IMG/VR virus record: IMGVR_UViG_2531839178_000011
Span: 1 to 11,238 of that record
Length of the DNA: 11,238 nt
DNA from: a virus
Lineage: Duplodnaviria; Heunggongvirae; Uroviricota; Caudoviricetes
Reading direction: 5' to 3' (one strand)
A program made the position numbers and the translations under genes. Position 1 is the first letter of the stretch, and each line of letters opens with the position of its first letter. Of the stretch, positions 1 through 11,238 are shown piece after piece. The notes beneath the pieces were generated by a model. The model was not told the origin of the DNA. It ran no database searches and was given only the letters and a program-made list of their open reading frames with translations.

Positions 1-75
1 CCCCATCAGCGACGTCTTGTGAAAATTGTCCTGTCTGGCAACAATCGCGCCCATCTATATTGATGGACACGAACG

Positions 76-750
76 ATGAATTCCCAGGCAACAAAAGATA
101 TTCCCTGCTTCCGTTCTTATTTGCCTGATGCCCTGCGTTTAAGATTTGAAGATAAACTGACCATCCGGGCCATCGCTCAGCGTCTGGGTCTCAGTCATTC
201 CACAATACATACGCTTCTTCAGCGATTTCTTGCATCCGGTATCGCATGGCCATTGCCCGATTCAGTTTCATTCGCTCAACTTGACGCCATCCTTTATGCC
301 AACAGAAAGAAGGAATTAACAGAGCCTCAAATCAGAGAAGGCTCATGGCGAAAAGAACGGCGAACCAGCTATAGCCGTGAATTTAAGGTCCGTCTGGCTA
401 AGCAGGCGTTACAGCCTGGGGCTGTTGTTGCCCGGATCGCCAGAGAACACGATATCAATGATAACCTGCTGTTTAAATGGAAAAGCCAGTACGAGGACGG
501 CTTACTGAGCGATGATGACATACAGGAATGCATGCCTGTCCCGGTGGCACTGACTGATACGCCGGAGCCGACCAGACCAGTTACAAATCCCTTCTGGCGT
601 AACAAGCATGATGAGCGCCCTGAGGGGGCTCCCGGAAACGTCCCACGGTGCGAGCTGCATCTTAAATCAGGTGTGGTAAAACTGTTTGACCCTCTCACTC
701 CGGAACTGTTACGGGCGCTAATCCGCGAAATGAAAGGGGGTATCCGATGA
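76..750 (+). CDS. tnpA: IS66-family accessory protein (TnpA/orf1-like), 224 aa with two helix-turn-helix-like segments
   Basis: The C-terminal half (RRTSYSREFKVRLAKQ...VARIAREHDINDNLLFKWKSQY) is an insertion-sequence orfA-type helix-turn-helix. The stop overlaps the next start as ATGA (747-750). The protein is longer than I expect for IS66 orf1, so the true start may be downstream of 76. Confidence 0.75.
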   Translation: MNSQATKDIPCFRSYLPDALRLRFEDKLTIRAIAQRLGLSHSTIHTLLQRFLASGIAWPLPDSVSFAQLDAILYANRKKELTEPQIREGSWRKERRTSYSREFKVRLAKQALQPGAVVARIAREHDINDNLLFKWKSQYEDGLLSDDDIQECMPVPVALTDTPEPTRPVTNPFWRNKHDERPEGAPGNVPRCELHLKSGVVKLFDPLTPELLRALIREMKGGIR

Positions 751-1094
751 TAACGCTGCCGACCGGTACCAGAATCTGGATCATCGCTGGCATCACAGAT
801 ATGCGTTGTGGCTTCAATGGCCTGGCTTCGAAGGTGCAGAACACGCTGAAAGATGACCCGTTCTCCGGGCATATCTTCGTCTTCCGGGGCCGCAGTGGCA
901 AAATGGTGAAAATACTGTGGGCCGATCGTGACGGGTTATGCCTGTTCGCCAAACGCCTGGAACGGGGCCGCTTCGTCTGGCCGGTGACCCGGGAAGGGAA
1001 AGTGCACCTGACGCCAGCTCAGTTATCCATGCTACTGGAGGGGATCGCGTGGCAACATCCCAAACGGACAGAACGGCCTGGCATCCGGATATAA
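747..1094 (+). CDS. tnpB: IS66-family Orf2 (TnpB of IS66; unrelated to the IS200/IS605 TnpB nuclease)
   Basis: 115 aa, MITLPTGTRIWIIAGITDMRCGFNGLA...LWADRDGLCLFAKRLERGRFVWP, a typical IS66 orf2 length and sequence pattern. Translationally coupled to the upstream ORF by an ATGA overlap. Confidence 0.9.
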   Translation: MITLPTGTRIWIIAGITDMRCGFNGLASKVQNTLKDDPFSGHIFVFRGRSGKMVKILWADRDGLCLFAKRLERGRFVWPVTREGKVHLTPAQLSMLLEGIAWQHPKRTERPGIRI

Positions 1095-1113
1095 CCCGTG
1101 ATAAAACAAGGGA

Positions 1114-2715
1114 ATGAACAATGAACTCCCCGATGATATTGAGCTGCTTAAAGCCATGTTGCGTAAGCAACAGAGTCGGCTTCGACAGTATGCCTGTCAG
1201 GTCGCGGGCTATGAGCAGGAAATTGAACGGCTGAAAGCGCAACTCGACAGGTTGCGTCGTATGTTGTTCGGCCAGAGTTCAGAGAAAAAGCGTCATAAGC
1301 TTGAAAATCAGATCCGACAGGCAGAAAAACGACTGTCGGAACTGGAAAACCGGCTGAACACAGCCAGAAATCTTCTGGAAGATGCATCGTCAGTCACAGA
1401 TTCACCTGACACCAGTCCCCCGTCAGAAAACCCGATCGCCAGTAAGCCTGAATCCCCGGGACGAAAATCTTCACGAAAACCGCTGCCGGCAGAACTTCCC
1501 CGGGAGACACATCGCCTTCTGCCTGCTGAAACCAGTTGCCCGGCCTGTGGAGGTGTTCTGAAAGAAATGGGGGAAACAATCTCAGAGCAACTGGATATCA
1601 TTAATACCGCCTTTAAAGTTATCGAAACCATACGTCCCAAACTGGCCTGTAGCCGGTGTGATGTCATCGTTCAGGCACCACTTCCCCCTAAACCGATCGA
1701 ACGCGGTTATGCCAGTGCAGGGTTACTTGCACGGATCCTGGTCAGCAAATATATGGAACATATCCCTTTATATCGCCAGTCAGAAATATACGCGCGACAG
1801 GGCGTGGAGCTGAGCCGTAATACCATGGTGCGCTGGGTATCAGAAATGGCAGACAAACTCCGTCCTCTGTATATAGCGCTGAATGACTATGTTCTGGAGG
1901 CAGGAAAGGTGCACGCAGATGACACTCCGGTGAAAGTACTGGCCCCGGGGAACGGAAAGACGAAAACGGGTCGTCTGTGGGTATACGTCAGGGATGATCG
2001 TAATGCGGGTTCATCCCTGCCGGCAGCCGTCTGGTTCGCGTATTCGGCAGATCGCAAAGGAGAACATCCGCAGCTCCACCTGGCAAAGTATCAGGGCGTA
2101 CTGCAGGCTGATGCCTATGCAGGTTATAACGTACTGTACGAAACGGGCCGGGTGAAGGAAGCCGGGTGCCTGGCCCACGCCCGCCGAAAAATCCATGACG
2201 AGGATGTGCGCCGTCCGACAGAAATGACTCAGGAAGCGCTCAGACGGATAGCAGAGTTATACGACATAGAAGCGGAGATACGTGGCAGTCCGGCAGAGGA
2301 ACGGCTTGCAGTCAGAAAAGCCAGAAGCGTCCAGTTGATGCAGTCGTTGTACGACTGGATACAGTTGCAGAGGAAAACGCTGTCGAAACATGCGGAGATG
2401 GCGAAGGCGTTCGACTATATCCTGAATCACTGGAATGCGCTGAACGAGTTCTGTCGTGACGGCTGGGTGGAAATAGACAACAACATCGGTGAAAACGCGT
2501 TACGATCGGTGGCGGTTGGAAGAAAAAATTATCTCTTTTTCGGCTCAGACAAGGGAGGAGAAAGTGCGGCGATCATCTACAGTCTGCTGGTCACCTGCAA
2601 ACAGAACGAAGTGGAGCCGGAGGACTGGTTGCGCGAAGTGATCGAGAAGCTCAATGACTGGCCGTCGAACCAAGTGCATGAACTGCTGCCCTGGAACTTC
2701 TCGTCTGTAAAATAA
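1114..2715 (+). CDS. tnpC: IS66-family transposase (TnpC/orf3)
   Basis: 533 aa with an N-terminal coiled-coil/leucine-zipper region ([14 protein letters not shown]...[12 protein letters not shown]) and CxxC...CxxC zinc-finger-like motifs (CPACGG...CSRCD), followed by a large catalytic domain. It sits 20 bp after orf2 and is preceded by AAGGGAATGAACAATG. Confidence 0.92.
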
Positions 2716-2730
2716 TCCTTACGCTACGTA

Positions 2731-2747
2731 CTTCTCGGGGCGCTTAC
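2731..2747. repeat. Right terminal sequence of the IS66-family element (inverted-repeat end ...GCGCTTAC)
   Basis: CTTCTCGGGGCGCTTAC lies 16 bp after the tnpC stop. Its reverse complement begins GTAAGCGCCCCGAGAAG. The full extent of the repeat cannot be set without the left end. Confidence 0.5.
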
Positions 2748-2748
2748 T

Positions 2749-3054
2749 GAAAAAGCAGAAACCAAAGGCGCGAAAGCCGCAAAGAACAGCGCTGCACAGG
2801 AAAACCCGGCACCGCTGGCAGACGTTATTGTGGCTGACGGTCAGGCGAATGAACCACGTCCGGCTGAAGACCCGGTTGCTGTACAGGGTGACGCCCCTGT
2901 CCGGCTGAACGTCAGGGCCGTGTCTGAAAACGGGTTCTGGCGCTGTGGCCGTTTCTGGTCACATATCGGTGAGGATGTGGCGGTGAGCGCTGCGGTTGCC
3001 ACCCGCCTGATGGCAGAGCCGAATCTGATTGTCCGGGAAGCGGAGAAAGGCTGA
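2749..3054 (+). pseudogene. 3' fragment of a phage head-region gene, apparently 5'-truncated by the IS66-family insertion
   Basis: Frame 1 is open from the IS terminus to the TGA at 3052-3054 and reads ...AKAAKNSAAQENPAPLADVIVADGQANEPRPAEDPVAVQGDAPVRLNVRAVSENGFWRCGRFWSHIG...EAEKG. The first in-frame start is a GTG at 2830 with no convincing Shine-Dalgarno. Its position directly upstream of the gp36-like gene suggests a Mu gp35-type head-associated protein, but the family is not confidently recognised. Confidence 0.5.
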
Positions 3055-3176
3055 TGGGATACATCACGCAGGAAGACCTGTTACGCGCGGACGGCAGAGC
3101 CGAATCTGATTGTCCGGGAAGCGGAGAAAGGCTGATGGGATACATCACGCAGGAAGACCTGTTACGCGCGGACGGC
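3015..3176. repeat. Perfect tandem direct duplication, 2 x 81 bp (3015-3095 and 3096-3176)
   Basis: The two 81-bp units are identical base for base and are bounded by GGCA microhomology at 3012-3015, 3093-3096 and 3174-3177. Each unit carries the upstream gene's TGA, a GGAGAAAGG Shine-Dalgarno and the ATG plus first 14 codons of the next gene. Confidence 0.95.
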
Positions 3177-3572
3177 AATCTTGTCTGGAACATGGCGATT
3201 AACCGGGAAACCAACGGGCTGGATGAAGACAAAATCCGTCAGGCCATCAGTGATGCGGAAGCGGAAATTGATTCGTTTCTGTCCCGCCGCTACCAGCTGC
3301 CGCTGGGGGTGACGGAAATCCCGCGCCCGCTGCAACGCGTGGCGGTATCGCTGGCGTTTTACTGGTTATCAGAGCGTGACAATCAAATCACGGAGCTGAT
3401 CCAGAAACGCTACGACGACGCCATTAAAACCCTGCGTGAAATGGCGAACGGCACCCGTGACCTGGGCCTGCCGACGTATGCCACCCCGGCAGAAACCGAC
3501 AACGGGAAAATTATTGTGGTGGGTGCCAATGCCCGGCTGTTCACCCGTAACAACCTGAAAGGGGTGCTGTGA
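3054..3572 (+). CDS. Mu gp36-like phage protein (DUF1320-type), with a 27-aa N-terminal duplication if translated from the first ATG
   Basis: MGYITQEDLLRADG...AISDAEAEIDSFLSRRYQLPL...KRYDDAIKTLREMANGTRDLG matches the Mu gp36 family pattern as I recall it. The second in-frame ATG at 3135, with an identical Shine-Dalgarno, would give the native-length protein. The stop overlaps the next start as ATGA. Confidence 0.8.
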   Translation: MGYITQEDLLRADGRAESDCPGSGERLMGYITQEDLLRADGNLVWNMAINRETNGLDEDKIRQAISDAEAEIDSFLSRRYQLPLGVTEIPRPLQRVAVSLAFYWLSERDNQITELIQKRYDDAIKTLREMANGTRDLGLPTYATPAETDNGKIIVVGANARLFTRNNLKGVL

Positions 3573-4114
3573 TGGGGATTTCTGTACAGGTCAGCGGTGA
3601 CCAGCGTCTGGAGGATATCCGCCGCGCCGTTGAAAAGCTGGCAGAGGGTTCATTGCAGTCAGAGCTGCTGGAAAGCATCGGTGCGGTGGTGGAATCACAG
3701 ACCCGCCGCCGCATCATCGATGAGAAAACCAGTCCGGGTGGCGAACGCTGGCCGGACTGGTCTGACGGGTACAAAAAGACCCGCCACGGCAACCAGAGTC
3801 TGCTGCGCGGTGAAGGCCATCTGCTGGAGAGTATCCAGTACATCGTGGAAAACCGCGTGGTGCGTATCGGTTCACCGCTGGATTATGCCCGCATCATGAA
3901 TGACGGCTTTTCCGGCAGCGTGCCGGTCAGCGCCCACAAACGGCTTATCTCGCAGTGTTTCGGGCGGGCGCTGAAATATCCGGTCTGGCAGACCGTCGGC
4001 GCACATCACCGCATGATGAACATTCCGCAACGTGAATTTCTGGGGCTGTCTTCTGCCAGCCAGCAGGAGCTGCAACAGGTTATCAGTCATTTCTGGAAGG
4101 AGGTTCTGCCATGA
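3569..4114 (+). CDS. Phage virion morphogenesis / tail completion protein (Mu G / P2 S-like family)
   Basis: 181 aa; the segment ...GERWPDWSDGYKKTRHGNQSLLRGEGHLLESIQYIVENRVVRIGSPLDYARIMNDGF is characteristic of this family. ATGA overlaps at both ends. Confidence 0.8.
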   Translation: MMGISVQVSGDQRLEDIRRAVEKLAEGSLQSELLESIGAVVESQTRRRIIDEKTSPGGERWPDWSDGYKKTRHGNQSLLRGEGHLLESIQYIVENRVVRIGSPLDYARIMNDGFSGSVPVSAHKRLISQCFGRALKYPVWQTVGAHHRMMNIPQREFLGLSSASQQELQQVISHFWKEVLP

Positions 4115-4722
4115 CAGAACAACGCCCTGAACTGCGCACACCGGGGAGCACCGTTGCGGCCGCAGAGCACATTGTGGCCTGGCTGCAGACGGCCCTTCAG
4201 GGGGACACCCCTGACCGGGCTGACGTGGTGGAGCGTCACATCGGCCAGTTCAACAGCCCGGATGAAGTGAAACGCTATCTGTCCGGTCGCACCGGCTGTA
4301 TCCGTGTCGCGGCCCTGCGTGTCCGGGATATCAACCCGCGCGGCGGGCTGTCCGGTCTGGTCACCTGGGTGGCTTACATCATGGCGACGGATTCGTGGGG
4401 GTATTCCCGCGACGTGCGCTGTGAAGTGCTGGCCGGAAAGGTGATCAAACGCCTGCTGTCGTCGGATGCCACAGCGGGCATGGGGGCTGAACGCATGGCT
4501 GCTGATGTGCGGGCAGACAACATTTACTCCGTCAGCCTCGACGGGCTGGGTGTCACCATGTGGGCGGTGACGTGGGAGCAGGAATTCCGGCTGGATGAAG
4601 AGATTGATCTCGCCGCGCTCCCGGATTTCCTGCGCCTCGGGGCGACACTGCGCAGCGGCGAACACACTGAAATTAACGACGTGATCCATGTACGGGGTGA
4701 CGATGGAACAGAAACTGATTAA
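4111..4722 (+). CDS. Mu gp37-like phage protein (DUF1834-type)
   Basis: 203 aa, in the position and of the size of the gp37 homologue between gp36 and the sheath in Mu-like tail modules; ATGA-coupled start. The family call is from memory and position. Confidence 0.65.
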   Translation: MTEQRPELRTPGSTVAAAEHIVAWLQTALQGDTPDRADVVERHIGQFNSPDEVKRYLSGRTGCIRVAALRVRDINPRGGLSGLVTWVAYIMATDSWGYSRDVRCEVLAGKVIKRLLSSDATAGMGAERMAADVRADNIYSVSLDGLGVTMWAVTWEQEFRLDEEIDLAALPDFLRLGATLRSGEHTEINDVIHVRGDDGTETD

Positions 4723-4888
4723 GCCAGCGCGGGAAAACGTCCGTGTCCGTAAACCGGATGGCGCACATTTATCCCCGGAAGGGGAACGTCTCAACGTCTG
4801 CGCTTACTGGCTGCGCCGTGAAGCCGAGGGAGATGTGGAAATAACCACACTTCCGAAAAATAACAACAAAACCAGAGGGAAAAAATAA
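4688..4888 (+). CDS. Mu gp38-like small phage protein (DUF2635-type)
   Basis: Small ORF immediately before the sheath gene, with its stop overlapping the sheath start (TAATG). An alternative start at ATG 4703 (MEQKLIKPAREN...) has a better GGGGTGA Shine-Dalgarno-like sequence and may be the real start. Confidence 0.55.
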   Translation: MYGVTMEQKLIKPARENVRVRKPDGAHLSPEGERLNVCAYWLRREAEGDVEITTLPKNNNKTRGKK

Positions 4889-6361
4889 TGTCGCTGGGTT
4901 CCATTCCTGATGATATCCGCGTCCCGCTTGTCTGGATCGATATCGACAATTCACAGGCGCTGGAGGGTGCATCCGCGCAAAGCCGAAAAATTCTGGTCAT
5001 GGGCCATGCGGTATCGTCCGGCAGCGCAGACGCCCTGTCACTGACCCGTATCACCAGTGACAGCCAGGCAGACCAGCTTTATGGCAAAGGGTCGATGCTG
5101 GCTGAAATGCTCAAAATGCTGCGTCGTGCCAACACGTACACGGAAACCTGGGCGATGCCGGTTGCCGCTCCTGAAGGCGCTGCCGCAAAAGCCACGCTGA
5201 CCGTGCTGGGTACAGCGACCGAAGCCGGAACGGTGGCACTGCTGATTAACGGTGTGTCCGTTCAGGTGAGCGTGAGCGCCGGGGATACGAAGGAAAACAT
5301 TGCAAAAGCCATTGCTGATGCGGTGACGAAAAAGCCTGCCACGCAGGTGGCCGCTGCGGTGAAGGATGATGCCACGGATACCGTGGAGCTGACCGTGAAC
5401 TGGCACGGCGTCACCGGCAACGGTGCCGACGTTCGCCTGAACTACCACACCGGTGAAGCCTTCCCGGCAGGTGTGAAGGTGACCGCAACCGCGTTTACCG
5501 GCGGCACCGGGACACCGGAAATGGCAGACGCCGTTGCGGCCATCGGCCCGGAGTGGTTTACCGATATCATCGCCCCGTTCACCGACACGAAAAGCCTGAA
5601 CACCCTGCGTGATGAACTGCTGAACCGCTGGGGGCCGCTCAAAATGATGGAAGCGCAGCTGTGGACGGCGTTTTGTGGCACGCACGGGGAAACCGGCACG
5701 TTTGGTGAAACCCGCAATGACTGGCTGATTAGCTGCATCGGCACCAACCTGTCGCCGCATCCGGCGTGGATGTGGGCCGCGTCATACGGCGCAACGGCAG
5801 CGTATCACCTTGCCATTGACCCGGCGCGTCCGCTTCAGACGCTGGTCCTGACCGGCATTCTGCCGCCTGCGCGTAATGTTCGCTGGGATATGGGAACGTA
5901 ACCTGCTGCTGCATGACGGCATTGCCACGCACATGGTGGACGCCGGGGATAACGTCTGCATCGAGCGTGAAATCACCATGTACCGGGTTAACCAGTACGG
6001 TGATGCGGATGTGTCGTATCTTGATGTGCAGTCACCCGCCACGCTGGGCCGTATCCGTTACATCATTAAAAACCGTTTCTCGAACCGTTATCCGCGCCAC
6101 AAGCTGGCGGATGATGACGTGCTGGACTCGCTGGATGCGGGGCAGCCGGTGATGACGCCGAAGCTGTGCACTGCAGAGCTGCTGGATATCTGCCAGACCG
6201 AACTTCTCCCGGCGGGCCTTGTGGAAAACTTCAGCGATTACAGGGACACGCTTCAGGTGACACGCGACAGCAGCGATAAAAACCGCCTGAACTTTATCTG
6301 CCACCCGAATCTGGTGAACCAGTTGCGTGTGCTGGCAGGCCTGATTCAGTTCAAGCTTTAA
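4888..6361 (+). pseudogene. Phage contractile tail sheath protein (Mu L-like), reading frame broken once
   Basis: Frame 1 (4888-5901, 337 aa) and frame 2 (open from 5852 to 6361) together give about 490 aa, a full-length sheath. The switch must lie in 5852-5898. The start is preceded by AGAGGGAAAAAATA. This may be a real mutation or a sequence error. Confidence 0.8.
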
Positions 6362-6370
6362 GGGGGCCAC

Positions 6371-6727
6371 ATGGCAAAAATTCTTGGCATGGCGACCATT
6401 CGCGTGAATGGCCGCGAAATTAAAACCGAGGGGAAATCCACGCTGAATCCGGGCGGCTTCAGCCGCACCCAGCATATGGGCGGCGGCAAGGTCTGGGGTA
6501 TCTCCAGCAAGATGGCCTCGCCGTCCATCAAGGTAACCATTGCGGCGGCAGCGGATATGGACGTGATTGAAATCAGCAACTGGGAAGATGTCACGGTGAT
6601 GTTCTACGGCGACAACGGCCTGAACTACATGATGACGGGTTCCGCCACGGATAACCCGGCAGAGCTGGACGAGGATTCCGGCACCATCAGTGCCAACTTT
6701 ATCGGTGAAAAATGCGTGAAGGTGTGA
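6371..6727 (+). CDS. Phage tail tube protein (Mu M-like)
   Basis: 118 aa, directly downstream of the sheath gene, with a Shine-Dalgarno AAGGGGG before the ATG. Size and position match a contractile-tail tube protein. Confidence 0.8.
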   Translation: MAKILGMATIRVNGREIKTEGKSTLNPGGFSRTQHMGGGKVWGISSKMASPSIKVTIAAAADMDVIEISNWEDVTVMFYGDNGLNYMMTGSATDNPAELDEDSGTISANFIGEKCVKV

Positions 6728-6728
6728 C

Positions 6729-7124
6729 ATGGCCGCAATGGAATTTGAACTGAAACACGGGCTTCTGACCGGCAAAGGCACGGCAGATGAAACCCTGCAT
6801 AAAACCGTGAAACTGCGCGAACTGACCGCCAGTGATGTGATTGATGCGCAACTGGCCGCAGAACGCGTCGTCATGGGCGGGAACGGAAAGGCGGTGGCCT
6901 ACTGTTCTGAGGTGCTGATGGGACTGGAGATGATGCGCCGTCAGGTTGCGTCAATCGGTAATATCCCCGGCCCGCTGGACATGAAACAGCTGCGAATGCT
7001 CCACCCGGCAGACCTTGAGCTTATCAGCACGAAAGCGGCTGTGCTGGATGACATGCTTGAGGAGGTGGCAACGCGGGGGCGAACTGATGCCGCTGGCGTC
7101 GGCACTGATGAACCTGCTGGTTAA
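6729..7124 (+). CDS. Phage tail assembly chaperone (Mu gp41-like)
   Basis: 131 aa between the tube and tape measure genes, the conserved position of the tail assembly chaperone. An overlapping +1-frame extension is annotated separately. Confidence 0.65.
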   Translation: MAAMEFELKHGLLTGKGTADETLHKTVKLRELTASDVIDAQLAAERVVMGGNGKAVAYCSEVLMGLEMMRRQVASIGNIPGPLDMKQLRMLHPADLELISTKAAVLDDMLEEVATRGRTDAAGVGTDEPAG

Positions 7125-7224
7125 CCTGTCTTCGCGATTCAGCATTCAGTACCTGGAACAGCTGCCCCTGCGGCAGTTGTTCCGCCTGATAAAGCAACTG
7201 GAGAAACAGCATGGCAACAGGTAA
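6985..7224 (+). other. Out-of-frame (+1) extension ORF overlapping the chaperone 3' end; candidate translational frameshift product
   Basis: Frame 1 is open from 6985 to 7224 and overlaps the tape measure start at 7211. Its distal part (ELMPLASALMNLLVNLSSRFSIQYLEQLPLRQLFRLIKQLEKQ) looks like real protein, while the chaperone's frame-3 tail (RGRTDAAGVGTDEPAG) looks degenerate. The -1 frame is full of stops. Confidence 0.4.
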
Positions 7225-8953
7225 CCGTCTCAGCACGGAAATCATGATCAACCTTGCCGGGAACCTGACCGCCAAAGCCCGGCAGTACGGTGCAAACATG
7301 TCGCAGTTCGCCCGGAACAACCAGAAGGCCATGCGCCTGGTCAAAGCCACAACGGAGGCTGCCGGGCGCAGTCTGGATGCGCTTGGCAACCGCTACACGG
7401 CGATGATTGCCGGGTTCGGTGGTGGTATGACCCTTAAAGGCCTGACAGATTTTGATGCGCAAATCCGCCGTGCGGGTACAAATGCAAAACTGACCGATGA
7501 GCAGGTATCCCGTTTAAGAAAAAACATCCGGGAAACCGCCAGAATGTCAGACATTCGCCTCAGTGCCCAGGTCTTACTGGAAGGCCAGGATGCACTGTAT
7601 GGCCTGACCGGTAAGCCGGAATTTGTTGAAAAAAACATCCGCAATCAGGGGCTGGCCACGCAGGCATTCGGGACTGCGCCACAGGATGCCGCGGCACTGA
7701 TGGCACAGATGTCCGAAAAACAGATTGAAGCGCCTCAGGAGGTTGAAGGCATGTTCGACCGCTTCTACCACCAGTTTTCCATTGGTTCGGTTGGTGTGGA
7801 TCAACTGGCGCGTGTATCAGCAAAACTGTTTTCGATTTATACCGGTGGTGGCAAAGAGGCGATGGCCCAGTTGGGGGCACTTGAACAGATGCTGGCAAAA
7901 ACAACCGGCTCTGCGGATGAAGCGGTGACCGCGCTGAACAGTATCTGGAGTGAAGTCACCCGAAAAGACAATATCAAGTTTCTGAAAAGAAACGGGGTTG
8001 ATGTGCTTGATCCTGTCACAGGAAAACCCCGTCTGCCTTATGACGTAATCAGAGACGTTGTCAGGCGGGCAAAATTTAATGAGCAGAACTTGCAGGATGT
8101 TTTCGGGGATACTTCCATGCGTGGATTAAGGGCACTGCTCAGTGAAGACGCCCTTCAGCTAACAGAAAAAATGATTTACGCCCCGGTTGAATCCGGTGCC
8201 ATGAGAAAAGCTGCGGAGAAAAACGCCCGGAGTTTTCAGTCTGCGATGCAGTCCCTGAAGAATGAATATGAGGTTTTTGCTGAAAAAAATCTGGCAAAAC
8301 CCGTTCAGGACCTGGCGGATGCCATCAACAGCGTGGACCAGAACTGGTTGCAGGTCGGTAAATATATGGCAATTGCGCTGGGTGGCATTATCGCCGTACG
8401 TAAGACGTACAAGCTCGGTAAAACCATCCACGACATCATGAATCCCAAAGGGAAAGGCAAAGGGATACCCGGCAGCGTGGCAGACGGCAACCCCGGCTTT
8501 GCCATCGGGCTGTCACCGGATTATCAGCCGGTATCTGACAGCCTGCAAAAGAACATTGACGACTTCCGCCAAGTGGTTGTGCTGGGAGCCCTGCTGGGAC
8601 AGGCCAGTGCCGTGGCCTCGATGACGTTCGATACCCGTGATGCGGCGTTATCTGCCGGTGACACGCTGGCGGCTGAACTGCATGAGCAGGCGGTGGCGGC
8701 GGTGGAAAACAACCAGCGGACATTGTGGCGAACGCTGCGCGATTTACGGCAGGCCGTGATTACGGATGCCCGCGAGCGTGCCGCCCGTCTGCCGGAAACC
8801 CGGCAGGTGACGCTGACCACAACCACCTCTGCCGCATTGCTGGCATGGCGCGAGCATGGTGACACACGCCGACGGGATGAAATCGTGCAGCGTAACCGCC
8901 TGCGTCATCCGTCATTCATCCTGCCGACGCAACCTGTGGAGATCACCGACTGA
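7211..8953 (+). CDS. Phage tail tape measure protein
   Basis: 580 aa, the largest ORF, immediately after the chaperone/frameshift region. It is helical and Ala/Gln/Leu-rich with a hydrophobic segment (YMAIALGGIIAVRKTYKLG). Shine-Dalgarno GGAGAAACA before the ATG; its stop overlaps the next start (TGATG). Confidence 0.8.
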   Translation: MATGNRLSTEIMINLAGNLTAKARQYGANMSQFARNNQKAMRLVKATTEAAGRSLDALGNRYTAMIAGFGGGMTLKGLTDFDAQIRRAGTNAKLTDEQVSRLRKNIRETARMSDIRLSAQVLLEGQDALYGLTGKPEFVEKNIRNQGLATQAFGTAPQDAAALMAQMSEKQIEAPQEVEGMFDRFYHQFSIGSVGVDQLARVSAKLFSIYTGGGKEAMAQLGALEQMLAKTTGSADEAVTALNSIWSEVTRKDNIKFLKRNGVDVLDPVTGKPRLPYDVIRDVVRRAKFNEQNLQDVFGDTSMRGLRALLSEDALQLTEKMIYAPVESGAMRKAAEKNARSFQSAMQSLKNEYEVFAEKNLAKPVQDLADAINSVDQNWLQVGKYMAIALGGIIAVRKTYKLGKTIHDIMNPKGKGKGIPGSVADGNPGFAIGLSPDYQPVSDSLQKNIDDFRQVVVLGALLGQASAVASMTFDTRDAALSAGDTLAAELHEQAVAAVENNQRTLWRTLRDLRQAVITDARERAARLPETRQVTLTTTTSAALLAWREHGDTRRRDEIVQRNRLRHPSFILPTQPVEITD

Positions 8954-10055
8954 TGGAATCCGTGATTCTTACCGTTGACGGCAAACTGTGGGAAGGCTGG
9001 ACGGAAATGTCCGTCAGCCGTTCCCTGAAGGCGATTGCCGGTGAGTTTGAACTCAGTGTGACAACCCGCTGGTCAGCGGCGGCACCGCGCGTGATTCGTG
9101 AGGGGCAACCCTGCACGGTCAGGCTGGGCGCGGATACCGTGCTGACGGGGTATATCGATGATTTTATTCCCGGCTATGAGGCTGAAAACGTGGAGATTCG
9201 CGTCATGGGGCGCGATAAAACCGGCGACCTGGTGGACTGCTCTGTGGTGCATTCGTCCGGGAAATGGAAAGGCGTGCGGCTTGAACAGGTGGCGGCTGAT
9301 GTCTGCCGCCCGTTCGGGATAACCGTCATCACGGAAACCCCGACCGGGGAGGCATTTGCGTCTGTCGTTCTGGAACAGGGTGAAACGGGCTTTGAACTGC
9401 TCGACCGGCTGGCAAAACAGCGCGGCGTTCTGCTGACGTCTGACGGCGCGGGTAACCTGATTATCACCCGCGCCTCTTCCGTTCGCGCGGGCGTGTCACT
9501 GGTGCTGGGAAAAATATCCTCGCCGCCCGTGGGCGCTTCAGCTGGCGGGAGCGTAACAGCCAGTACATCATCAAGGGCACCACCAGTGCCCGTGGCAAAC
9601 TGTGGGACAGCCAGCCTGCCCCGATGGTGGGCGGTCGCCAGTACATCACCGAAGCCCCGGAAATTAACCGTTACCGCCCGCGCATTCTGGTCAATGAAGA
9701 CAGCCTGACCGTGGGCGGGGCCAGCATTCGCGGGGAATGGTACAAAGCCCGGATGCTGGGAGAGTCCCGCACGACGGAAATCACGGTGGCAGGCTGGCGC
9801 GAACAGGGCGACAGCGGCCCGCTGTGGCAGACCAACCGCCTTGTCGATATCGACGACAGCATTCAGAACCTGAAAACCACCTGGCTGATATCCGGGGTGA
9901 CATGGACGGATGGCGCACAGGGGAGGATGACGGTTCTGGCGCTGGTTCCGCCTGAATCACTGGACATGCCGGAAATGAAAGCGAAGACGAAAAAACAAAG
10001 GCGGTGGCCACATGGGATTAAACGCAATTGCCCGCCGCCTGCGACTGATGGTTGA
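8953..10055 (+). pseudogene. Phage baseplate hub / tail protein D (P2 gpD / Mu P-like), reading frame broken at an A5 run
   Basis: Frame 1 (8953 to about 9510) and frame 3 (open from 9456 to 10055) join into one protein of about 367 aa (...ITRASSVRAGVSLVLGK/NILAARGRFSWRERNSQYIIKG...). The junction is the A5 run at 9510-9514; one more A restores the frame. This may be a real mutation or a homopolymer sequence error. Confidence 0.8.
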
Positions 10056-10548
10056 CCGCGCTGTTGTCCGCCTGGTGTCTGACGGTCTGGCACGGCAGAA
10101 CCTGCAAATTCAGACGCTGGCAGATGCCACCGATGACGACGTGGAACGCTTCCAGAACTACGGGTTTACGTCCGTTCCGCCGGAAGGTTCTGAAGCCATT
10201 GTGATGGCCGTTGGCGGACGGCGTGACGGGCTGGTTGCCATCGCGGTGGAAGACAAGCGATGTCGCCCGAAAGGACTGTCCCCCGGCGATGTCAGGGTGT
10301 ATCACCGGGACGGCAAATCACACATCACCCTGAAGGAAAACGGCGTCATTGAAATCACAGGAGAACAATTAGACTTTTCAGGGAAAACGGTAAATCTCAC
10401 TGCCGACGAACTGCTGAATATTATCGGTAAACAAATGAAATTCGTCGGTCCCTGTGAATTCACTGAAGATGTCAGAATCAAGGGTAAATCATTCAGCGAA
10501 CACATTCATAAGGACGGCGACAATGAGAATACATCACCGCCCGTATGA
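10012..10548 (+). CDS. Phage baseplate assembly protein V / spike-like protein (Mu gp45-like)
   Basis: 178 aa, preceded by AAAGGCGG. Position after the hub gene and size fit the V/spike family. It overlaps the hub ORF's 3' end by 44 nt. Confidence 0.75.
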   Translation: MGLNAIARRLRLMVDRAVVRLVSDGLARQNLQIQTLADATDDDVERFQNYGFTSVPPEGSEAIVMAVGGRRDGLVAIAVEDKRCRPKGLSPGDVRVYHRDGKSHITLKENGVIEITGEQLDFSGKTVNLTADELLNIIGKQMKFVGPCEFTEDVRIKGKSFSEHIHKDGDNENTSPPV

Positions 10549-10997
10549 CGACAGAAATCCGCTGGAATAACATGCTCTCACGGGGTGACATCACCGTCAC
10601 CCATAACGGCCTCTCACGGGATGAGGGGCTGGTCACTCAGGTTCTTATCTGCCTTTTCACCGATGCCCGCGCTGATGACGATGATGTCATTCCTGACGGC
10701 TCCGGCGACCCGCGCGGCTGGCCGGGCGACACGTACAGCGATTTTTCGTGGGGTTCCCGCCTGTGGCTGCTTGAGCGTGAAAAGCTGACGGAAGATGTCC
10801 GCCTGCGCGTGGAAGATTACGCGCGGCTGTCCATGCAGCCGCTTCTGCGTGCCGGTTACGCCCGTAACGCCACCGTCACGGCCAGCATCATCATTCCTGA
10901 CCGTATTGCCTTTCTGGTGGTGTTAACCCGCCCGGACAAAACCACACTCAGAATCGAAATCACCCGTCGATGGGAGGCCACCATTAATGCCGTATGA
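10545..10997 (+). CDS. Mu gp46-like baseplate protein (GP46 / gp25-W-like)
   Basis: 150 aa, ATGA-coupled to the upstream gene, in the position of gp46 in Mu-like baseplate modules. Confidence 0.7.
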   Translation: MTTEIRWNNMLSRGDITVTHNGLSRDEGLVTQVLICLFTDARADDDDVIPDGSGDPRGWPGDTYSDFSWGSRLWLLEREKLTEDVRLRVEDYARLSMQPLLRAGYARNATVTASIIIPDRIAFLVVLTRPDKTTLRIEITRRWEATINAV

Positions 10998-11238
10998 AAT
11001 CCCCACGCTGGGCAAACTGATTGCCGACGGCGAAAAAGATATTGCGTATGAACTCGGCCTGCAAAAGCTGCCGCCTGTCAGTGTTGAGCAGGCGCTGAAC
11101 GTGTCATTCAGCAGTCAGGTCCGGGATTTATACGACCATCAGAGCTGGATTAAGGACCAGATAATCCCGTCCACCACGTCTGATGATGAAACCATTATCA
11201 AAACAGCAAAGTATGAAGGCGTTATCCGCAAGCAGGCC
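10987..11238 (+). CDS. Baseplate J-like protein (Mu gp47-like), 5' part only; continues past the window end
   Basis: ATG at 10987, with frame 1 open for 84 codons to the window edge (MPYEIPTLGKLIADGEKDIAYELGLQKLPPVSVEQALN...). It overlaps the gp46-like stop by 11 nt and sits in the expected position of the J-like baseplate wedge gene. Confidence 0.7.
   Translation, partial: MPYEIPTLGKLIADGEKDIAYELGLQKLPPVSVEQALNVSFSSQVRDLYDHQSWIKDQIIPSTTSDDETIIKTAKYEGVIRKQA

Follow-up and report, generated by a model that had tools for sequence, protein, structure and literature searches.

In contractile sheaths, among them R-type pyocins, T4 and T6SS, each subunit interlocks with its neighbours through its terminal segments, and assembly of the subunits into a sheath requires their C-terminal part. 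In Mu-type sheath loci, the genes follow the order DUF2635, sheath, tube and gp41-like assembly chaperone, and the same gene order was observed in the locus described here. The analysed stretch of DNA (hereafter the window, 11,238 nucleotides) corresponds, over its full length, to contig AKNA01000011.1 of Shigella boydii 965-58 (assembly GCA_000268145.1); a literature search for strain 965-58 returned no paper. For Shigella in general, the expansion of insertion sequences (ISs) and the accumulation of pseudogenes are well described (PMC7373316, PMC8072062). We conclude, with a probability of about 0.95, that the sheath gene of the window is an ordinary pseudogene of the Mu gpL family, broken by an inherited CC deletion in a decayed Mu-like prophage of S. 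boydii.

Reading frames and domains of the sheath gene

The sheath gene is distributed over two overlapping reading frames, which are listed with the other features of the locus in Table 1. Frame 2 is open from just past the TGA at 5849-5851 up to 6361, according to both direct reading and the ORF list. No single uninterrupted ORF covers the whole sheath, since the frameshift at 5892/5893 leads to a stop codon at 5899-5901, and the last two residues of the N-terminal fragment (G-T) are out of frame. In the Pfam analysis, the N part matched PF04984 (Phage_sheath_1) at residues 205-334, over just 137 of the 168 profile positions, and also PF17481 (Phage_sheath_domII), while the C part contained a complete PF17482 (Phage_sheath_1C, 104/104 profile positions). 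The 337-aa and 161-aa ORFs amount to 498 aa with their short overlap included, and the intact orthologues to 491 aa. The first-pass annotation had placed a switch from frame 1 to frame 2 within a 47-bp interval (5852-5898) and had regarded both parts as genuine sheath sequence of normal total length. These coordinates were confirmed and, being fixed features of the sequence, raise no question of chance, the CC deletion falls within the interval, and the domain matches and summed length bear out the identity of both parts.

Table 1. Coordinates of the sheath gene fragments, lesions and neighbouring features in the window
Feature	Position	Strand	Description
ISSfl3 (IS66 family)	1..2747	+	near-complete; tnpA 76-750, tnpB 747-1094, transposase 1114-2715
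N-terminal sheath fragment	4888..5901	+	frame 1, 337 aa, TAA at 5899-5901; EIQ36129.1 / WP_004996586.1
Frame-2 ORF from ATG 5876	5876-6361	+	161 aa; EIQ36130.1 / WP_004996588.1
2-base deletion site	5892..5893	+	intact ATG CCG GAR (Met-Pro-Glu); window ATGGGAA, CC missing between 5892 and 5893
C-terminal third of sheath gene	5894..6361	+	now frame 2; end of subtilisin-like domain and whole C-terminal domain
Synonymous polymorphism	5896	+	A; G in VL40 and NCCP 13717; GAG>GAA, synonymous in the original frame
1370-bp deletion junction	8468..8473	+	relative to intact prophage; microhomology CCCGGC (6 bp)
Baseplate gene gpP	8953..10055	+	356 aa when intact; broken by two 1-nt deletions in A runs

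The 2-base deletion

Through alignment to the intact sheath genes of VL40 and NCCP 13717, the indel was located to the base, as the first-pass annotation had expected of an alignment to intact Mu-like sheaths. The orthologues read GAT ATG CCG GAG CGT, and the same stretch of the window reads GATATGGGAACGT. The missing CC was also present in the MAFFT indel lists over a wider region, drawn up against intact E. coli prophages including FDAARGOS_943. At the deletion site, the deletion form is ATGGGAACG and the intact form, with CC, is ATGCCGGAA or ATGCCGGAACG. The lost CC sits within GCCGG and no long run is present, so the earlier description of a break away from any obvious homopolymer was correct. 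An indel had likewise been rightly implied, but its description as an extra or missing base has to be amended, as two bases are deleted and repair of the ORF needs two added.

A 122-nt query in which CC was restored and the A at 5896 was kept matched the intact sheath genes of at least 8 E. coli prophages at 100% identity. For this reason, the G>A change at 5896 is considered an older polymorphism and the CC deletion the sole sheath lesion; a single complex mutation comprising both changes was considered and rejected on the same evidence.

The repaired protein and its intact relatives

With CC put back, the gene encodes a 491-aa protein that differs at 2 residues from VL40 and at 6 from FDAARGOS_943. 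This protein shares 40.1% identity with Mu gpL across residues 1-491 (tblastn), and its residues 2-490 align to residues 5-494 of 9khy, a solved tail sheath of 495 aa (phmmer, E = 5e-112). It scored 106 bits against PF04984 (cut-off 31.4) and 45.5 bits against PF17482 (cut-off 26.9). The full-length collinearity with Mu gpL-type sheaths holds only when CC is restored. Furthermore, genes neighbouring the sheath gene match PF10618 (Tail_tube), PF23746 (Gp41_Mu), PF06890 (Mu_Gp45), PF07409 (GP46) and PF07030 (Mu_Gp36), and the sheath is followed by a tube gene and a tail assembly chaperone, the arrangement of a Mu-like tail module. The "Mu-like" label given in the first reading of the sequence is supported by the full-length identity to Mu gpL and by the Mu-named families on the adjacent genes.

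A megablast search of positions 4888-6361 against complete E. coli genomes gave full-length sheath matches in 45 genomes, at 95-99% identity. Among the matches listed, each spans 1476 nt, where the window has 1474 nt, and carries the annotation of a single tail sheath CDS. No mutant allele was found in the complete E. coli genomes, where the full-length matches were all 1476 nt and none attained 99% identity. In each of 176 phage records, one location accounts for at least 80% of the repaired protein. The closest phage protein match was that of Klebsiella phage Kp4866-3 (74.7%), and a search of the phage collection for a near-identical genome found none, the DNA matches reaching only 72-74%. 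The idea, raised at the outset, that two separate sheath-like ORFs could be the conserved state is contradicted by the single 1476-nt ORF of the 45 E. coli genomes and by the phage records that align in one place.

Other variants of this gene were observed as well. Codon 263 (5674-5676) encodes Cys in the S. boydii allele and Arg in both intact E. coli orthologues compared, in WP_284521048.1 and in the E. coli 2.3916 product; Cys263 is the only non-synonymous difference that sets the allele apart from both intact orthologues. WP_284521048.1 is itself a broken S. boydii allele, with a different frameshift near residue 353, and E. coli 2.3916 carries another, whose 310-aa product follows the sheath sequence only up to residue 308. 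It appears that the sheath gene of this Mu-like prophage family has been inactivated on more than one occasion, or else that these records carry errors of their own.

Recurrence of the deletion among assemblies

The mutant motif GGGATATGGGAACGTAAC was found in identical form in four more assemblies, namely GCA_002968135.1 (on a 5.1-Mb contig) and the Logan assemblies of SRR11791543, ERR200314 and SRR8186662, and the same four encode the 337-aa product. The independence of the five assemblies was judged from their accession numbers and structural differences. The 81-bp duplication of the window is present in none of the four others, the A-run deletion at 9989 in no other assembly that covers the site, and the 1370-bp deletion in the window and ERR200314 only. 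Because other positions in the locus differ from the window, the assemblies are not copies of one dataset, and a sequencing artefact is very unlikely because the deletion recurs in assemblies that differ elsewhere.

These observations bear on the possibility that the frameshift is a sequencing or assembly error of the 965-58 draft and that the sheath is intact in the actual genome. The window, a short draft contig, has two oddities of its own that may be artefacts, the A lost after 9989 and the perfect 81-bp tandem duplication at 3012-3177. However, the identical 2-base deletion is found in a 5.1-Mb NCBI contig and in three different SRA runs, none of these assemblies carries the two oddities, the site is not a homopolymer run, and the exact 337-aa and 161-aa products, both named at NCBI as S. 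boydii proteins, are each found on 8 contigs. An error is accordingly a very improbable explanation. Of the two readings offered in the first-pass annotation, inactivation by an indel during prophage decay is supported and a sequencing error is not, given the same deletion in four other assemblies that differ elsewhere in the locus. Sequence comparison thus indicates that the CC deletion is most likely an inherited mutation and that error is effectively excluded.

Other lesions in the prophage

The right end of ISSfl3, a terminal repeat (...GGGGCGCTTAC), finishes at 2747, and homology to the prophage starts abruptly at 2748, 5 nt into the gene that follows gpT (major head gene) in FDAARGOS_943. 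Since the homology begins just past the major head gene, all head and early genes are gone and have been replaced by ISSfl3. In the long contig of GCA_002968135.1, an IS4-family element lies ahead of ISSfl3, and still further ahead are the chromosomal genes uppS, cdsA, rseP and bamA. The ISSfl3 copy in that assembly has 8 extra bases (AATACATA) after the position corresponding to 203 of the window, and tnpA is broken there.

Downstream of the sheath, the 1370-bp deletion has created a fused 580-aa ORF at 7211-8953, in which the opening ~420 codons come from the start of the tape-measure gene and the remaining ~160 from the end of the DNA-circularisation gene. GCA_002968135.1 and SRR11791543 are without this deletion and keep separate genes of 614 aa and 424 aa. 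The 1370-bp deletion is considered younger than the sheath lesion because it is common only to the window and ERR200314. In gpP, one A is gone from the A run after 9509 in the window, GCA_002968135.1, SRR11791543 and ERR200314, and the gene is frameshifted in every strain that covers it. The second A loss in gpP, after 9989, is confined to the window and may be a homopolymer sequencing error. Additionally, the tail-fibre gene of GCA_002968135.1 is interrupted by an IS of ~1.3 kb (19245-20545) that encodes a 397-aa DDE_Tnp_1 transposase. On comparison across the assemblies, the sheath frameshift is evidently one of at least four lesions common to the lineage.

Two further features were noted in this region. 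The perfect tandem duplication in the window (2.0 copies, 100% match) lengthens a gp36-like ORF from 145 to 172 aa; either a strain-specific change or an artefact of assembly could account for it. In the tail fibre, ~10 bp of fibre-gene sequence (positions 14309-14318 of the FDAARGOS_943 prophage) align to either flank of the IS and resemble a target-site duplication.

History and probable consequence of the sheath lesion

The sheath gene carries a frame-disrupting change relative to intact orthologues, the lesion recurs in other assemblies, and other essential genes of the prophage are lost or broken, all of which is the pattern looked for in a pseudogene. The CC deletion arose in an ancestor of an S. 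boydii lineage and has been passed on since. It shifts the frame after Met335, adding Gly-Thr before the stop, and the predicted product is without the final ~30 residues of the subtilisin-like domain (residues 205-365) and without the whole C-terminal domain. A sheath subunit truncated in this way should not polymerise, because the terminal segments interlock neighbouring subunits, and we infer that sheath function has been lost. The remnant would in any case be incapable of making particles, with its head genes lost to ISSfl3, gpP frameshifted and an IS in the tail fibre of a related strain.

The age of the break can be judged from the repaired gene. Relative to the VL40 codons, it shows 19 synonymous and 2 non-synonymous differences, a ratio that marks purifying selection during almost all of the divergence and, in turn, points to a sheath break that is recent relative to it. 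As for the C-terminal piece, in-frame ATGs at 5876 and 5933 could in principle allow some translation. Inspection of the sequence revealed no Shine-Dalgarno-like sequence before ATG 5876, and translation of the C-terminal ORF is therefore probably weak or absent.

Two readings in which the broken gene would still be functional were weighed against this history. The 47-nt overlap of the two frames makes a programmed shift geometrically possible, in which a +1 or -2 shift within 5852-5898 would give a full-length sheath. This is extremely unlikely. The arrangement in two frames is a derived one, restricted to this S. boydii lineage, whereas all close orthologues and Mu-type phages have one ORF; the two frames are therefore not conserved among homologues, the E. 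coli and Mu-type phage genes being single ORFs. The final codons before the frame-1 stop are ATG GGA ACG TAA, and on inspection the overlap contains no recognisable +1 site, with neither a CUU-UGA-C-type nor a CCC-UGA-type motif and no upstream Shine-Dalgarno stimulator. Reading of 5852-5901 for a slippery or hungry-codon site with a stimulator likewise revealed no known +1 or -2 motif. Moreover, with the head genes absent and the baseplate gene broken, there would be no selection for a working sheath.

It can also be proposed that the gene is functionally split and that the 337-aa and 161-aa polypeptides jointly form a sheath, for example in a domesticated tailocin, given that both pieces retain near-perfect sheath sequence and that the surviving module is the tail and not the head. 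The break, however, lies inside the subtilisin-like domain (PF04984) and not between domains, and ATG 5876 lacks the preceding ribosome-binding sequence already mentioned. The remaining tail genes are damaged as well, with gpP frameshifted, an IS in the tail fibre (GCA_002968135.1) and the tape-measure gene fused by deletion (window), and a recent break accounts for the good sequence preservation. A split gene is hardly credible on this evidence. There is similarly only a minute chance that the tail module has been kept as a tailocin-like device whose sheath comes from two polypeptides acting together or from +1 recoding at a low level across 5852-5898. Inherited decay of a formerly intact sheath gene is the reading adopted here.

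With respect to annotation, WP_004996586.1 and WP_004996588.1, deposited as two "sheath family" proteins, each represent half of the same pseudogene, and their records should say so. The locus represents a clean, dated case of stepwise prophage decay in Shigella that combines lineage-shared and strain-specific lesions, and these lesions could be used as lineage markers.

Comparison with known systems

When repaired, the S. boydii protein (491 aa) is collinear end to end with Mu gpL and with 9khy (495 aa) and possesses the same three Pfam domains. It differs from Mu gpL in that the gene is cut by the 2-base deletion after codon 335 and no full-length product is encoded. Close relatives are intact Mu-like prophages of E. 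coli (for example those of VL40, FDAARGOS_943 and RM11911), which share 96-98.5% nucleotide identity over 2748-11238 and have the same genes in unchanged order. The intact E. coli prophages have head genes, a 1476-nt sheath ORF, a full tape-measure gene, a DNA-circularisation gene and an intact gpP, whereas in the S. boydii copy all of these are lost or broken.

The sheath lesion fits the known decay of prophages in Shigella and is ordinary in this respect, with no new biology. The ISs of the remnant comprise ISSfl3 on the left and, in GCA_002968135.1, the IS4-family element further upstream and the IS in the tail fibre. As in the IS-driven genome reduction and pseudogene build-up of Shigella (PMC7373316, PMC8072062), the remnant is bounded and interrupted by ISs and has acquired small frameshifts in addition; it differs from that process in the sheath gene itself, where the lesion is a small deletion and not an IS insertion.
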